17,009 nt of DNA from a virus. Its lineage: Duplodnaviria; Heunggongvirae; Uroviricota; Caudoviricetes. The DNA lies in the IMG/VR virus record IMGVR_UViG_2879736954_000011. One strand, 5' to 3'. The notes under the pieces were generated by a model. The model did no database searches. It was not told where the DNA came from and was given only the letters and a program-made list of their open reading frames with translations. Positions 862-10,062 of this stretch are shown piece by piece (the stretch's first letter is position 1; every line of letters begins with the position of its first letter). The translations under genes and the position numbers were made by a program.

Positions 862-1569
862 ACTTGTGAAGGAAATGGTACTCAGGGGGATTCCAGTACA
901 GGTGGTGCGCAATTAGCTATAAATGGCCTTAACGGTTCGTGCGCTTTGGTATTAAACAACCCATACTTTGAGGCTAATGCCGGGGGGGCAGACCTTGCTA
1001 TAGATAATACTGGGACGCGCCCTGTAACTGTGGTTATAAACGGTGGAAATTTTCATCGCGTGAGCAGTGCAAGATACACGCACACGAATATTCAAGTAAC
1101 AAGCTCAGGTGGGGGAAAAGTTACAGTCATACTCAACGGCACAACGTTCCAGAGCGCAGGGGATTATCAGCCAAGTGCAGAACGACCATACTGGATAACA
1201 GGAGCTAATTGCGAGGTAGTTGACATTGGGTGTGTTTTTACAGAAACAACCAGTAAGGTAACATCGGCTTCTGCATTGTCAGTCACACGCTCGGGAAAAA
1301 TTAACGCCAATGGTAGTATCGACGTTGCTACTGGTGTTTCATCGGTTAACGTGGTTTCTACAGGTGTGTATGATGTTAGCTTTTCTCATCCGCTCGCAGC
1401 AGTTGCTAGCGGTTATATTGTGCAGATAACACCTATATCTGCGCCTGATTCAGTTAGTTGTGATGTTACTTATATTGGCGTAGATACATTTAGGGTGACC
1501 CTGCGCAATACGCTTAGCGGGGCAGGAATCTCCAGTTCGTTTGCATTTAGCATTACCAGACTAATATAA
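862..1569 (+). pseudogene. Tailspike / tail-fibre protein, C-terminal fragment; 5' part displaced by the IS
   Basis: Frame 1 is open from the IS end to the stop at 1569 with no plausible native start (the ORF-track start at 946 is TTG); Gly/Thr/Ser/Asn/Val-rich repetitive composition; located just upstream of O-antigen modification gene and attP as in P22/Sf6-type phages. Confidence 0.4.
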
Positions 1570-1577
1570 ATACATTC

Positions 1578-1609
1578 GCCGCCCCATTTGGACATATATG
1601 TAGGGCGGC
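1578..1609. terminator. Hairpin between convergent genes (possible bidirectional intrinsic terminator)
   Basis: GCCGCCC (1578-1584) ... GGGCGGC (1603-1609) 7-bp GC stem, followed by T-rich tract TTATGTTTATTGTTTATT; the 18-nt loop is long, so the call is weak. Confidence 0.4.
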
Positions 1610-1622
1610 TTATGTTTATTGT

Positions 1623-2795
1623 TTATTGATTGTTGTTTGTTAATGTGGGTATTAATTCTTTTACTAAAGTTGTGGTTTGTTTTGTTAATTTGATGAATGG
1701 CGTCTCTATTAATTTAAAAGTTAGGCATGATGTGAACGTAATAAGAAATGCAGTTGTGCTTACCAGTATGATAAATGTATTTTCAGTGTAATTATTAGGA
1801 ATAATCCACGTCATTAGGCAATAAAGGAATATCCCATGCAGAAGGTAAACGCTGTAGGTAGTTTCTCCTAGCTTTCTGGTTATATTTAATCTTAATATTC
1901 CATACAAATCACAACCTGATGCGATAATGATAAATGTTATTCCACAAAGAATCAGTGGTAGCGGTGCGTAAGTTGTTTTGAAATACGTCATTTCAAAAAC
2001 CATTATCGCAGTTATTATAATTGGTGTTACTTTTGCTTTGGCAATTCCATTGACTATCTTTGATTTATTTAGCAAAAATGCCAGGAGCCCAAAAAGAAAT
2101 GATGCTATGTGTATTTTACTGAAAAATAAAATGAAAACAAATAGCGATATTGCGCTAATCATAACCATGTAAATACTGACTTTTCTTTTTATGAGCGCGG
2201 AAATTACCGGAAGAGAAAAATAAAAGAACCATTCATATACAAGTGTCCATGTTACAGCGGCATTGATAGTAAATGAATCTTTTACGTCATTAATGTTCGG
2301 CATACCTAGCGCAGTGAATGGCAACCACTTCATTATTGACACAAAAAGCTCTTCTGTGGATACCTGCATTCTCCATCCAGACTTAAAACCTACAATGATA
2401 AAAATGAGACATAGGCTAACTATGAACATTGGGGTTAATCGTAGTAATCTTGATACATAAAGCCTTGTCCAGTCCTGATCTCCAGAGATAATCTTTGAAA
2501 AGAACAGATAACCAGTAATCATAAAAAAGAATGACACACCAACTTGGCCTAAATTTGCTAACAGATTTGATGAAGGTGCTTCCCATACTCCAGATGACAA
2601 GTATCCATTCCAAATTGCTGCGTGATGAATAAGCACGAAAATTGCTAAGAACCCCCGCATTCCATCTATTTGATTATTCCTGCCGTGCTCAACAAGATTT
2701 ATTGGGGAAATTTTATCAAATAACCCCACAGCTAATAACGACATCAATATCACGGATGTTATTAATAATAAACTGTTAATTTCAATCATATGCAT
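1623..2795 (-). CDS. Acyltransferase family 3 (AT3) integral membrane protein; O-antigen O-acetyltransferase-like (Oac-like) seroconversion gene
   Basis: 390 aa, multi-pass hydrophobic protein; N-terminal NQIDGMRGFLAIFVLIHH motif (conserved Arg and His-His of the AT3 domain); strongly AT-rich gene in the position occupied by gtr/oac genes between tailspike and attP. Confidence 0.75.
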   Translation of the reverse strand: MHMIEINSLLLITSVILMSLLAVGLFDKISPINLVEHGRNNQIDGMRGFLAIFVLIHHAAIWNGYLSSGVWEAPSSNLLANLGQVGVSFFFMITGYLFFSKIISGDQDWTRLYVSRLLRLTPMFIVSLCLIFIIVGFKSGWRMQVSTEELFVSIMKWLPFTALGMPNINDVKDSFTINAAVTWTLVYEWFFYFSLPVISALIKRKVSIYMVMISAISLFVFILFFSKIHIASFLFGLLAFLLNKSKIVNGIAKAKVTPIIITAIMVFEMTYFKTTYAPLPLILCGITFIIIASGCDLYGILRLNITRKLGETTYSVYLLHGIFLYCLMTWIIPNNYTENTFIILVSTTAFLITFTSCLTFKLIETPFIKLTKQTTTLVKELIPTLTNNNQ

Positions 2796-3083
2796 GCTCT
2801 ATTACGCAATTAAAATTTCTCCAAGTATACTGACTTTTAGTTAATGATCATATAGTTATGTGTAACTGATGAAACAAAACGGAGACACACCAAGCTTTGC
2901 ACTGGATTGCAAGGCTTTGTGCTCTTCTGTGAATGTGTGGCTATATGTTTGAAGATCGTTGTGCCGTATTTGTGACATATATATGGCAACATCATGCATC
3001 AACTTTCTGTTTGTGTCATCAACTATAGCTTAGTGAATGCGGTTAATGCTTGCTAAAACAGATAGTTATGATTGGTGCTACAG

Positions 3084-3143: not shown

Positions 3144-4307
3144 TTACACATCATTAGTACCTTCCTTATTTTTTGACTGGGACAAATTTGGGACCGATGG
3201 GTTCAGGATCGAGTCTATTTGCCGTGCGTGTTCGGTAAGGTGATTAGGTGCAAGGTGAGCATATCGACGAACCATTTCGATAGACTCCCAGCCTCCCATT
3301 TCCTGTAACACTGACAATGGGACTCCGGCTTGAACCAGCCAACTTGCCCAGGTGTGTCTCAAGTCGTGAAATCTGAAATCATCAATACCAGCCCGTCTCA
3401 GCGCCGCTTTCCAGGCTGTGTTTGCGTCATACCGCATCTTCCTTACTGTTGGCGCTTTCGTTCCGTCTGGTTTGGTACAGCTTTCCTTGTATACAAATAC
3501 CCAACGGTGATGATTCCCGATTTGTTTTTTCAATACGCGACATGCAGTATCATTCAGCGCAACGCCAATTGCGCGGTTTGATTTACTCTCTTCCGGGTTT
3601 ATCCATGCCACCCGGCGCTGCATGTCTATTTGTTGCCATTCAAGGTTGATGATGTTCGAGCGTCTTAAGCCTGTTGCCAGTGCAAATTCAACAACAGACT
3701 TTAATGGCTCCGGACATTCATCAATCAGCCTTTGTGCTTCATGAGGCTCCAGCCAGCGGATACGTTTATTCTTCGGTTGAGGCACTTTAATAATTGGTGC
3801 CTTATCCAGCATTTTCCATTCACGCTCTGCGGCTCTTAGCAGGGCCTTTATAAATGAAAGATGCGTAGCCTTCGTTGCAACGGACGCTGGTTTTGGCGTG
3901 TATTCTGGAACAGGTTTCCCTTTTTTTCTGCATGCTTCTGCCCTGAGTTTCCAGTTTTCCTCATGACGCCGGTTCGTCATTTTCTGCATTGCTGAATAAA
4001 TTTTTGATTCAGTAATGTCTTTTAGTTGCATTCCTGCGAAATGTTGAAGCCAGAATCCGATCCGGCTTTTGTCATCGTCCAGTGATTTTTTATGTGCTTT
4101 CTCTTCGAGCCACCTGACACACGCTTCCTCAAACGTCATATCAGGTATTTCACCAAGTTTGCTGACCCGCCATGCTTCAGCCTTTAGCTTGTCATGGAGC
4201 TCTGTCGCCTGCCTTTTGTCCTTTGTTCCAAGAGACTGTTTAAATCTTTTACCGTTCGGCAATGTGAAACTGGCGTACCATATTTCACTTCTGCGGAAGA
4301 GTGACAT
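3144..4307 (-). CDS. int: Tyrosine integrase, P22-type (thrW-specific)
   Basis: 387 aa; N-terminus [44 protein letters not shown] and C-terminal [17 protein letters not shown]...RYAHLAP catalytic region match P22 Int as I recall it; GAGG RBS. Confidence 0.9.
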
Positions 4308-4534
4308 TTTCTTTCCTCTGTTATGCCATCACCCGCGCTCACCTTGATAGTATGCAGCGGAGACTGAAGCGCCGCAATGCAGGCTTGTCGCGTTGTGAGG
4401 TAAGGAGATTTTGGTTTAGTGGGGTCTTTGCGTGTTGCCTGTAGGCGGCCTGTTCGTATCCAGTTGGTGGCGGTTGGTCTGGATATCTTAAGAAACTGAC
4501 AGGCCTCATCGAGTGTGAGGCTGTATGATTCCAT
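4184..4534 (-). CDS. xis: Excisionase, P22-type
   Basis: 116 aa from [31 protein letters not shown] (winged-helix Xis motif); overlaps the 5' end of int as in lambda/P22; the ORF-track start 30 nt upstream is probably not used. Confidence 0.8.
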
Positions 4535-4784
4535 GGTTACCTCTGCTTTTTGAACGCATGTCACGTAACTTCTTAATGTGTTCTGCCGTTTCGATCTCTT
4601 CTGCTATCCGATCTGCATCAGCTTTATTCACAGGTTCAAAGTCATGATTAAAGCGGAACATGCTGGCGATACATGTTCTGCCTTTTCGGATGTAGTGAAC
4701 TTTGTTGTGGGTAGAACGCAGGATTTTGCAGGGAGTGCCGTGGTGGTCGACGTACCAGGTGTTAGGCAAAATGATTCTGAACAT
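4506..4784 (-). CDS. Small hypothetical protein (DUF4222-like pattern)
   Basis: 92 aa, GAGGTG RBS before ATG at 4784; pattern ...HG...V..V..N.VHY.R.G...C...F...F.PV resembles small prophage proteins of unknown function. Confidence 0.5.
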   Translation of the reverse strand: MFRIILPNTWYVDHHGTPCKILRSTHNKVHYIRKGRTCIASMFRFNHDFEPVNKADADRIAEEIETAEHIKKLRDMRSKSRGNHGIIQPHTR

Positions 4785-4831
4785 TTTTACACCTCAGTTG
4801 GACGATGTTGAAATTTGCTGCCTTGAGGCCA

Positions 4832-5050
4832 TCACAGTCCCCATTGTTTGTTCTTAAGTTCGATCTCCTCCTGGCAACTTGCACAAGTCCGACAACCCTG
4901 AACAGCCAGGCGTCTTCGCTCATCTATCGGATCGCCACACTCACAACAATGAGTTGCGGATACAGTCTGGTAGTTCAGACGACGCATTTTTATTGCTGTA
5001 TTGCGCTGTAATTCTTCGATTTCTGATGCTGAATCAATGATGTCTGCCAT
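4832..5050 (-). CDS. TraR/DksA-family C4 zinc-finger protein
   Basis: 72 aa with CxxC-(17)-CxxC (CCECGDPIDERRRLAVQGCRTCASCQ), the phage TraR-like zinc finger. Confidence 0.7.
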   Translation of the reverse strand: MADIIDSASEIEELQRNTAIKMRRLNYQTVSATHCCECGDPIDERRRLAVQGCRTCASCQEEIELKNKQWGL

Positions 5051-5103
5051 CTTTCATTAATCCCTGAATTGTTGGTTAATACGCTTGAGGGTGAATGCGA
5101 ATA

Positions 5104-5126
5104 ATAAAAAAGGAGCCTGTAGCTCC
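5104..5126 (-). terminator. Possible intrinsic terminator on the minus strand
   Basis: Minus-strand GGAGC-TACAG-GCTCC hairpin followed by TTTTTT, immediately downstream of the 71-aa gene; short 5-bp stem. Confidence 0.35.
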
Positions 5127-5148
5127 CTGATGATTTTGCTTTTCATGT

Positions 5149-5364
5149 TCACCGTTCCTTAAAGACGCCGTTTAACATACCGATTGCCAGACTTAAGTGA
5201 GTCGGTGTGAATCCCATCAGCGTTACCGTTTCGCGGTGCTTCTTTAGTACGCTACGGCAAATGTCATTGACGTTTTTATCCGGAAACTGCTGTCTGGCTT
5301 TTTTGATTTCATAATTAGCCTGACGGGCAATGCTGCGAAGGGCGTTATTATGTTCTATTGTCAT
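5149..5364 (-). CDS. Hypothetical protein, 71 aa
   Basis: Internal ATG at 5364 with GTGAGG RBS, 8 bp after the stop of the upstream 250-aa gene; the longer ORF-track version would overlap that gene by 131 bp. Confidence 0.5.
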   Translation of the reverse strand: MTIEHNNALRSIARQANYEIKKARQQFPDKNVNDICRSVLKKHRETVTLMGFTPTHLSLAIGMLNGVFKER

Positions 5365-5371
5365 ATTGGCC

Positions 5372-6124
5372 TCACACTTCGAATGCCAGTTGAGGGGTAA
5401 AGACGTCCCGTTCAGCGTTGTAATTAAGTGAACTGGCACTGTTGAATGATTCAATGCGTTCCACAAGAACTTGCGTACGGGTTTCTTTACTTGCGGGAGC
5501 ATATGGCGAACCTACCCAGGATTTGTCGATGCCTATATTTCTTGCGACGTTCGTGCTGTCTGCAGACGAAAGCGGTACATGAGTAAAAATGTCTTTATTT
5601 AACATCCGTAACCCATGAATCTTGGTGATTGGGTAGCCGTACTGATCTACAACATGACGTATAAGATCGCGTAGTTTAGCCCGACACGCTCTCGGTCGTT
5701 TTGCATCGTATTCCCCCATCGAGCCGATGCAGACGCGGGGAAACTCATGGCACAGACGAATAAATCGCTCATCTGGTTCGTTCATGTGCCACACCGGAGC
5801 ACCAATAAATTTACCGTGAGGCCATGCCGCAATCAGGGCGTCATTCTCTTCACTGGTTCCGCCGATAACATCCGGGATAACCGCGAATGAGAAACGAGGG
5901 TGATTGCCCCAGCGTTCAACAAATCTGTAATATTCATTCCAGTCTACGGCCTTGTTTTTTGTCCAGAATGTGAATGCACCATTATCAAGAGCAAATGATT
6001 GGGTGACTTCGGAAGCCAGATCAATCTGAGCTGGATTAGCAAAACTGATGAATGCGTGTCTGCCTTTCCAGGCTTTCAACGCACAGGTATCGGGAGTTAT
6101 TGGACCACCGTGAAAATGAATCAT
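5372..6124 (-). CDS. Hypothetical protein with tRNA-guanine transglycosylase (TGT)-like motifs; candidate DpdA-like 7-deazaguanine DNA transglycosylase
   Basis: 250 aa; GGGAGAG RBS; collinear motifs resembling bacterial TGT: FISFAN (cf ILGNTF), LDNGAF (cf TDSGGF, catalytic Asp), FAVIPDV (cf IVMIFDE), CIGSMGE (cf AVGGLAVGE), IHGL (cf LMGVG), NVARN (cf RNARN); no C-terminal Zn subdomain. By-eye comparison only. Confidence 0.4.
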   Translation of the reverse strand: MIHFHGGPITPDTCALKAWKGRHAFISFANPAQIDLASEVTQSFALDNGAFTFWTKNKAVDWNEYYRFVERWGNHPRFSFAVIPDVIGGTSEENDALIAAWPHGKFIGAPVWHMNEPDERFIRLCHEFPRVCIGSMGEYDAKRPRACRAKLRDLIRHVVDQYGYPITKIHGLRMLNKDIFTHVPLSSADSTNVARNIGIDKSWVGSPYAPASKETRTQVLVERIESFNSASSLNYNAERDVFTPQLAFEV

Positions 6125-6279
6125 ACACTCTCCCGTTTATTATTTATCTCCTCAGCCAGCCGCTGGGCTTTCAGCGGATTTCGGATAACAGAAAGGCCGG
6201 GAAATACCCAGCCTCGCTTTGTAACGGAGTAGACGAAAGTGATCGCGCCTACCCGGATATTATCGTGAGGATGCTTCAT
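6121..6279 (-). CDS. Small protein resembling lambda orf60a (52 aa here)
   Basis: [52 protein letters not shown]; ATGA overlaps with exo stop upstream and with the 250-aa gene start downstream (translational coupling). Confidence 0.5.
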
Positions 6280-6956
6280 CGCCATTGCTCCCCAAATACA
6301 AAACCAATTTCAGCCAGTGCCTCGTCCATTTTTTCGATGAACTCCGGCACCATCTCGTCAAAACTCGCCATGTAATTTTCATCCCGCTCAACCACGACAT
6401 AATGCAGGCCTTCACGCTTCATTCGTGGGTCATAGTTGGCAAAGTACCAGGCATCTTTTCGCGTTACCCACATGCTGTACTGCACCTGGGCCATGTAAGC
6501 CGACTTTATGGCCTCGAAACCACCGAGCCGGAATTTCATGAAATCCCGGGAGGTAAACGGGCATTTCAGTTCAAGGCCGTTGCCGTCACTGCATAAACCA
6601 TCGGGAGAGCAGGCGGTGCGCATATTTTCGTCGCGATAGATGATCGGGGATTCAGTAACATTCACGCCGGAAGTGAATTCAAACAGGGTTCTGGCGTCGT
6701 TCTCGTACTGTTTTCCCCAGGCCAGCGCCTTAGCATTAACTTCCGGAGCCACACCGGTGCAAACCTCAGCCAGCAGGGTGTGGAAGTAGGACATTTTCAT
6801 GTCAGGCCACTTCTTTCCTGAGCGGGGCTTTGCTATCACGTTGTGAACTTCTGAAGCGGTGATGACGCCGAGCCGTAATTTGTGCCATGCATCATCCCCC
6901 TGTTCGACAGCTCTCACGTCGATCCCGGTACGCTGCAGGATAATGTCCGGTGTCAT
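6276..6956 (-). CDS. exo: Lambda exonuclease (Red alpha)
   Basis: 226 aa, [43 protein letters not shown]... matches lambda Exo from memory. Confidence 0.95.
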
Positions 6957-7738
6957 GCTGCCACCTTCTGCTCAGTGGCTTTCTGTTTCAGGAATCCAAG
7001 AGCTTTCACTGCTTCGGCCTGTGTCAGTTCTGACGATGCGCGAATGTCGCGGCGAAATATCTGGGAACAGAGCGGCAATAAGTCGTCATCCCATGTTTTA
7101 TCCAGGGCGATCAGCAGAGTGTTAATCTCCTGCATGGTTTCATCGTTAACCGGAGTGATGTCGCGTTCCGGCTGACGTTCTGCAGTGTATGCAGTATTTT
7201 CGACAATGCGCTCGGCTTCATCCTTGTCATAGATACCAGCAAATCCGAAGGCCAGACGGGCACACTGAATCATGGCTTTATGCCGTAACATCCGTTTGGG
7301 ATGCGACTGCCACGGTCCGGTGATTTCTCTGCCTTCGCGGGTTTTGAATGGTTCGCGGCGGCATTCATCCATCCACTCGGTAACGCAGATCGGATGATTA
7401 CGGTCCTTGCGGTAAATCCGGCATGTGCAGGATTCATTGTCCTGCTCAAAGTCCATGCCATCAAACTGCTGGTTTTCATTGATGATACGGGACCAGCCAT
7501 CAACGCCCACCACCGGAACGATGCCGTTCTGCTTGTCAGGGAAGGCGTAAATTTCTTTCGTCCACGGATTAAGGCCGTACTGGTTGGCGACGATCAACAA
7601 TGCGATGAACTGCGCATCGCTGGCATCACCTTTAAATGCCGTCTGGCGAAGAGTGGTGATCAGTTCCTGTGGGTCGACAGAATCCATGCCGACACGTTCA
7701 GCCAGCTTCCCAGCCAGCGTTGCGAGTGCTGTACTCAT
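6953..7738 (-). CDS. bet: Lambda Bet (Red beta) single-strand annealing protein
   Basis: 261 aa, [48 protein letters not shown]... matches lambda Bet; 4-bp overlap with exo. Confidence 0.95.
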
Positions 7739-9991: not shown

Positions 9992-10062
9992 TGTGCTCAG
10001 TATCACCGCTAGTGGTATTTATGTCAACACCGCCAGAGATAATTTATCACCGCAGATGGTTA
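9992..10062 (-). promoter_or_regulatory. pL promoter with oL1-oL3 operators
   Basis: Minus-strand -35 TTGACA (10022-10027) and -10 GATACT (9999-10004); operator 17-mers TATCACCGCTAGTGGTA, CAACACCGCCAGAGATA, TATCACCGCAGATGGTT. Confidence 0.85.

Follow-up and report, generated by a model that had tools for sequence, protein, structure and literature searches.

Genomic setting of the dpdA-like gene

The window, i.e. the whole stretch of 17,009 nucleotides analysed here, is 100% identical over its bases 4300-7000 to the genome of the Enterobacteria (Shigella flexneri) phage SfI (JX509734 / NC_027339); coordinates in the SfI record are obtained by adding 18147 to those of the window. According to the annotation, the minus strand carries in order N, ral, an ssb-like ORF, cIII, kil, gam, bet, exo, a DUF1317 ORF and gp34, followed by gp33, gp32, a DksA-like zinc-finger ORF, a DUF4222 ORF, xis, int and attP (Table 1). 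The gtrA/B/I serotype-conversion genes come after attP in SfI. The GC content of positions 1501-3000, which hold gtrB/gtrA/gtrI (O-antigen glucosylation), is about 35%, compared with about 47-53% in the neighbouring phage genes, and this low value fits the foreign origin known for the SfI serotype-conversion cassette. The annotated xis (4184-4534) and int (3144-4307) genes overlap by 124 nt (window 4184-4307, minus strand) and the longest ORF in the xis frame reaches 4564; the start and stop calls at the xis-int junction may need checking.

The gene under study is gp34, referred to below as dpdA-like. The 250-aa ORF delineated in the initial annotation runs uninterrupted from ATG to stop, and its placement between exo and xis in the early-left operon is correct, all of these genes lying on the minus strand. 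The stop codon of the upstream DUF1317 ORF overlaps the start codon of the dpdA-like gene (ATGA), which is preceded by GGGAG, and the first 10 nt of the DUF1317 ORF are shared with the 3' end of exo. The overlaps at both junctions speak for the translational coupling to the Red genes that had been proposed, but this coupling would only be indirect since the small DUF1317 ORF stands in between.

On the downstream side, gp33 as annotated (window 5149-5502, 117 aa) shares 131 nt with the 3' end of the dpdA-like gene. A second possible start, the internal ATG at 5364, is located 8 nt past the dpdA stop with GAGG upstream, and the resulting 71-aa version matches PHROG 303 across its full length. 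The annotated start at 5502 is probably too far upstream. A clean terminator-like hairpin followed by a T-run is found directly past gp33 at 5110-5128 on the minus strand, within the early-left operon.

A putative promoter with hexamers spaced as TTGACA-17-GATACT lies upstream of N, an exact match to the hexamers of lambda pL. Transcription of N, ral, cIII, kil, gam, bet, exo and the dpdA-like gene presumably starts here, with N-dependent read-through suggested by analogy with lambda. On the minus strand, no promoter-like site was detected closer to the dpdA-like gene than 9038. A lysogen-expressed defence moron was also considered and set aside, no promoter-like site being present upstream on the coding strand.

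Table 1. Features of the early-left region and codons of predicted active-site residues (window coordinates).
Feature	Position	Strand	Basis
dpdA-like gene (SfI gp34, YP_009147480, 250 aa)	5372..6124	minus	ATG-to-stop ORF
Asp47 codon (D-N-G-A-F motif)	5984..5986	minus	invariant, 47/47 in A2 and 31/31 in A4
Asp85 codon (IPDV)	5870..5872	minus	46/47 in A2; aligned to Asp in Rinkes DpdA
His113 codon (PVWH)	5786..5788	minus	46/47 in A2, 31/31 in A4
His170-Gly-Leu to Ser187-x-Asp189-Ser190	5558..5617	minus	H170, S187, D189 and S190 invariant in A2
DUF1317 ORF, 54 aa	6121..6285	minus	PF07026 at E 2e-33 and junction sequences
exo	6276-6956	minus	annotation
gp33, downstream small ORF (PHROG 303), 71 aa, probably from internal ATG	5149..5364	minus	sequence
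xis	4184-4534	minus	annotation
pL-type promoter (TTGACA-17-GATACT), between N and rexB	9999..10027	minus	sequence match

Conserved residues of the 250-aa protein

The six short motifs from which a tRNA-guanine transglycosylase (TGT) core had been recognized are all present and in the order given, namely ISFAN (residue 26), LDNGAF (46), FAVIPDV (80), CIGSMGE (132), IHGL (169) and NVARN (192). The corresponding landmarks of E. coli Tgt are D89-SGGF, D143-EC, D264-CVMPTRNARNG and C302xC304xxC307. The reported absence of a C-terminal zinc subdomain is confirmed: the protein has four Cys only, none of them past residue 147, and neither a CxCxxC nor a CxxC motif, and thus no TGT-type zinc site. This absence is not disqualifying because the CAjan, Rinkes, HK106 and 7-11 proteins are also devoid of CxCxxC.

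Conservation was assessed in family alignments of 59 close members (A1), 47 diverse members (A2) and 31 mixed members with the CAjan lineage added (A4). Residues D47, H170, S187, D189 and S190 are invariant in A2, and D85, H113, G134, G171 and L172 are nearly so. With the CAjan lineage included (A4), D47, A50, H113, G134, H170, P184, D189 and S190 are still invariant; Asp85 is invariant in a five-protein alignment. The SxDS motif of the SfI family is aligned with 'SCDS' in CAjan and 'SVDS' in Rinkes.

The bacterial DpdA of Salmonella Montevideo uses Asp95 as general acid/base and Asp256 as nucleophile; the base is recognized by Asp130 and His181, with Phe99 and Leu236 stacking against it, and the enzyme retains a structural Zn site (PMC10164549). 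The D-x-G-x-F spacing of D47/F51 in the SfI protein is the same as that of D95/F99 in this enzyme and of D89/F93 in E. coli Tgt. From motif and spacing, Asp47 is predicted to be the general acid/base, equivalent to Asp95 of bacterial DpdA and Asp89 of E. coli Tgt, and Phe51 would correspond to Phe99. His113 is predicted from its spacing to be the base-binding histidine, equivalent to His181. His170 and Asp189 form the predicted catalytic pair with Asp189 as nucleophile; Asp189 would be the counterpart of Asp256 in bacterial DpdA and Asp264 in Tgt, and the pair that of H226/D248 in Cap10. The putative set of equivalences with bacterial DpdA (D47=D95, D85=D130, H113=H181, L172=L236 and D189=D256) is drawn from motifs and spacing, not from superposition. 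The singleton clade, i.e. the stand-alone DpdAs, is set apart by two features. Residue 48 is Asn, as opposed to the Ser of TGT, Cap10 and the CAjan lineage, and the N-terminal HxHG strand contains a near-invariant His5.

Family assignment and predicted fold

The SfI protein is matched by PHROG 887 at 4e-99. This family also takes in the DpdA of CAjan (8e-96), MED16 DpdA, the 7-11 protein, Rinkes DpdA and HK106 gp29. Comparison of the family profile with hhalign matched CAjan DpdA (98.9%, E 2.3e-17, 175 columns) and Rinkes DpdA (98.5%), the latter from a Rosebush-like phage in which it is located in a FolE/QueC/QueD/QueE cluster.

Sequence searches of Pfam, NCBIfam and PDB returned no TGT match, either with the single SfI protein or with profiles A1, A2 and A4, and weak matches to HipT, GCN4 and a cellulase were rejected as noise. 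Likewise, E. coli Tgt, used as a single sequence, was not matched by hhalign. The HMM check against PF01702 proposed earlier failed to support the assignment, as no Pfam match was obtained at E<=10 for the SfI protein and none for the 47 family members. The validated DpdAs of CAjan and Rinkes are without a Pfam match as well. With HHpred, on the other hand, MED16 DpdA is reported to match PF01702/TGT at over 95%. The PF01702 check therefore cannot discriminate, and its negative outcome excludes Tgt proper but not the superfamily.

An AlphaFold2 model built from 59 homologues (pLDDT 81.3, pTM 0.80) has an alternating strand/helix pattern. Foldseek against the PDB placed Cap10 (9ntn) on top, barely above generic TIM barrels. 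In a viral structure library, the named matches at E<=1e-3 are phage 'queuine tRNA-ribosyltransferases' with the single exception of a weak ART-PolyVal-like protein at rank 28. On the strength of PHROG 887 membership, the hhalign match to CAjan DpdA and the predicted fold, the initial assignment to the TGT fold and the DpdA family stands: as judged from sequence and model, gp34 is a homologue of TGT-fold DNA-guanine transglycosylases belonging to the stand-alone (singleton) clade.

Prior record and distribution

This finding is correct, but it is already known. The exact protein has been catalogued as a stand-alone DpdA since 2019, when 'NC_027339 Enterobacteria phage SfI YP_009147480' was listed beside the lambdoid phage HK106 (Hutinet et al. 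2019, PMC6884629, Supplementary Data 1), both being among the 76 DpdA-only phages of the singleton group or group 3 (PMC6884629). In the same study, the singleton DpdAs of gamma-proteobacterial phages formed their own cluster, with possible functional divergence, and their hosts have the full Q pathway (PMC6884629). RefSeq labels the SfI gene as queuine tRNA-ribosyltransferase. As a prediction, the DpdA assignment adds nothing since the protein was already catalogued and annotated. Nor is a DpdA-only lambdoid phage unusual, as the initial annotation had supposed: SfI and HK106 were listed in 2019 and the gene is widespread.

The SfI protein matches 6182 clusters at 90% identity (E<=1e-3) and 894 at 50% identity. 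Matches were found in 112 GenBank phage records, including BTP1, SPN3UB, a Stx1a phage, Klebsiella phages and many Vibrio phages, and a relative is encoded in at least 588 IMG/VR stretches. An allele at least 99% identical is carried by 100 of 5426 complete E. coli genomes, where it is annotated as hypothetical. Of these 100 carriers, 95 have an intact reading frame, as do 80/80 viral loci taken from IMG/VR, which are close relatives only, A1 having served as the query. From its sequence record, gp34 is a real, conserved gene.

The slot between the recombination module and xis is common to SfI, HK106 and BTP1. Among the 80 close viral loci, exo is located upstream in 28, the gp33 ORF downstream in 36 and a DksA-like ORF downstream in 39. 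Among prophages of the lambdoid and P22-like types in E. coli, Shigella, Salmonella and Klebsiella, Stx phages and BTP1 included, stand-alone DpdAs are common. Our literature search found no published experiments on SfI, lambdoid or prophage singleton DpdAs. Separately, the 1719-bp GenBank record OR850331 ('Staphylococcus phage SA 1298 Kay') encodes a homologue 67.6% identical to SfI gp34 that scores like those of Salmonella P22-like phages; this record is probably mislabelled or a contaminant.

Singleton status and genomic partners

No FolE, QueD, QueE, QueC or amidotransferase gene is annotated in the region of the window. No homologue of QueC, QueD, QueE, FolE or VUT was detected by phmmer within 10 kb in the 80 related loci, which are therefore true singletons. 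The proposal of a DpdA-like gene standing alone in a lambdoid temperate phage whose host is able to make preQ0 is upheld. Because A1 yielded close relatives only, the wider survey of co-occurrence rests on a few GenBank phages.

The ParB-like ATPase DpdB and the dpdC-K restriction genes are not found in the SfI region. A ParB-like ORF lies directly upstream of the dpdA-like gene in one of the 80 IMG/VR loci (L069) and in the GenBank Pantoea phage AH07. In the latter (L009 3682-5756), translation of a DpdA homologue 67% identical to the SfI protein is coupled to that of a 440-aa ParB-HTH protein, the ParB-HTH stop overlapping the start of the homologue; this pair recalls bacterial DpdB (ParB-like ATPase)-DpdA. 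In cyanophage Pam5, a 42%-identical homologue is located two genes from a confirmed Vut_1 (YhhQ-family) gene. Neighbours of this kind connect more distant relatives with 7-deazaguanine metabolism. The VUT annotation of an ORF beside the Phleasolo homologue was unconfirmed by Pfam and corresponds to PHROG 4899, a family without known function; it was not counted.

Gene 1 of Mycobacterium phage Rinkes (L005 1-1302), annotated as a ParB-like nuclease, contains DUF6610 (PF20314, E 2e-33) at residues 199-384. DUF6610 was equated with the DpdA4 type (Hutinet 2023). The preQ0 cluster of Rinkes is consequently flanked by two TGT-related proteins.

Characterized relatives

The DNA of two DpdA-only phages with homologues of the SfI protein was analysed by mass spectrometry (PMC8306585; PMC6884629). 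In Pantoea phage vB_PagS_MED16, whose gp38 is 39% identical to the SfI protein (E 3e-47), dADG amounts to about 0.13% of G, and no noticeable effect on the tested restriction enzymes was seen (PMC8306585). In Salmonella phage 7-11, whose homologue is 36% identical (E 1e-36), 50 dADG were found per million nucleotides, equivalent to about 0.02% of G (PMC6884629). Both proteins share PHROG 887 with the SfI protein, the identity extends over about 195 aa, and D-N-G-A-F, PVWH, HGLR and SADS are in common. Like SfI, these phages lack preQ0 synthesis genes and infect enterobacterial hosts with a complete Q pathway. They differ in lifestyle: MED16 and 7-11 are lytic phages with low-level dADG in their DNA whereas SfI is temperate and lambdoid, with the gene in a pL operon.

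In the 7-11 genome (L002, HM997019), the N-terminal motif of the family, 'VHFHGGPSLG', is encoded at about 2930-2990, upstream of the CDS L002:2986-3690 and in another reading frame. This out-of-frame motif would reflect a frameshift or a sequencing error and may bear on the very low dADG content. In the 7-11-related phages SE131, SeKF_80 and pSal-SNUABM-01, the match begins at residue 2.

Phage 9g DpdA, expressed alone in E. coli, replaced 0.03-0.3% of G in plasmid DNA by host preQ0 (PMC6884629), hence a DpdA-only arrangement works in such a host background. The host of mycobacteriophage Orion makes no preQ0, and no 7-deazaguanine is present in the phage DNA. In CAjan, dpdA deletion abolishes dPreQ0, which otherwise replaces about 32% of G. 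The pathway-linked DpdA1 proteins of CAjan and 9g belong to PHROG 887, have Asp/His/Asp active-site positions as in SfI and share with it the lack of CxCxxC. However, CAjan DpdA (306 aa, with D-S-G-A-F) is only about 18% identical to the SfI protein, and its gene is encoded with FolE, QueD, QueE, QueC and a VUT transporter whereas the SfI gene stands alone. The bacterial DpdA of the Dpd restriction-modification island (PDB 7ui4) is a 413-aa protein with DNA-binding insertions and a Zn site that needs the ParB-like ATPase DpdB; SfI gp34 has neither the insertions nor the Zn site nor a DpdB partner.

Proposed function and alternatives

In our judgement, gp34 is with fair probability a stand-alone phage DpdA that would place a few host-derived 7-deazaguanines in DNA by base exchange during lytic growth. 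Family, fold, conserved predicted active-site residues, singleton status and operon position come from this analysis; that the enzyme acts on DNA, which base it inserts, how much is modified and whether any defence is countered are inferred. A compact TGT-fold TIM barrel, gp34 would by homology exchange bases through the double-displacement mechanism of TGTs. Asp189, positioned by His170, would attack C1' of a deoxyguanosine in duplex DNA, and the guanine would leave assisted by Asp47. The covalent intermediate would then be resolved by a free 7-deazaguanine base bound to Asp47, Asp85 and His113. The incoming base may be preQ0 or its amide form ADG, made by the FolE/QueD/QueE/QueC pathway of the host; it must be host-supplied since SfI encodes no 7-deazaguanine synthesis genes. 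Since transcription of the gene is shared with the early-left (pL) genes, the enzyme would be made early in lytic growth or upon induction, with replicating phage DNA as its substrate. If the tested relatives are a guide, a few to a few tens of guanines may be marked per genome.

The hypermodification protecting against restriction that the initial annotation envisaged is not what the relatives point to, as the tested DpdA-only phages carry dADG on 0.02-0.13% of G and no protection was detected for MED16. An anti-restriction role of gp34 is plausible but unsupported.

An unlikely alternative reading is that of a diverged TGT-fold enzyme which binds a 7-deazaguanine-like base but works on a target that is not phage DNA. 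Possible activities are the attachment of a nucleobase to a protein, as by Cap10, or hydrolytic glycosylase activity on DNA, for instance to strip bases from competing or host DNA. Cap10 (type IV CBASS, PDB 9ntn), the top structural match, has a His226/Asp248 catalytic pair and has lost the Zn site, but it is only 9% identical to the SfI protein; its target is the N-terminus of a CD-NTase, and its partner the QueC-like Cap9. Near gp34, neither a QueC-like (Cap9) ORF nor a CD-NTase was found, be it in SfI or in the 80 related loci. The closest sequences by a wide margin are moreover those of DNA-modifying DpdAs (hhalign E 2e-17, same PHROG), dADG was found in the DNA of two singleton phages, and a gene located inside a lytic pL operon without a promoter of its own is a poor fit to a lysogen-expressed defence gene.

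It is very improbable that gp34 is a phage tRNA-guanine transglycosylase altering the queuosine status of host tRNA in favour of phage translation. The RefSeq/PHROG name 'queuine tRNA-ribosyltransferase' and the TGT-like fold would agree with this function, but the name is inherited from remote homology and the characterized members of PHROG 887 act on DNA. Compared with Tgt (PF01702), the SfI protein has no sequence-profile match, is 125 residues shorter and lacks the Zn subdomain and the C-terminal elements used by TGTs to bind RNA; its similarity to the E. coli Tgt sequence is undetectable. Equally improbable is an inactive or vestigial accessory gene without enzymatic role, an idea suggested by the highly mosaic nature of the region from the recombination genes to xis, home to many dispensable ORFs. 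Strict conservation of the predicted catalytic residues in A2, which samples the 894 clusters at 50% identity, argues against decay, as does the frame being intact in 95/100 E. coli carriers and all 80 viral loci.

What stand-alone DpdAs do is a testable question; they appear to place few 7-deazaguanines in each genome. Genetic work is feasible in SfI and its E. coli relatives, among them the 99.6%-identical Escherichia phage PhiR5_1, and host que mutants are available, making this a convenient system to address it.

Applying the rates of MED16 and 7-11 to the 38.4-kb SfI genome, roughly 4 to 25 modified guanines would be expected per genome, a number more in keeping with a site-specific mark than with bulk camouflage. 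It can be imagined, as a slim chance, that the singleton clade characterized by Asn48 and the HxHG strand represents a site-specific enzyme placing ADG, an intermediate formed by host QueC, directly at few defined sites of temperate-phage DNA. If so, the modification would be a sparse epigenetic mark with a role other than general anti-restriction, possibly in evading one defence system or in marking DNA for replication or packaging.
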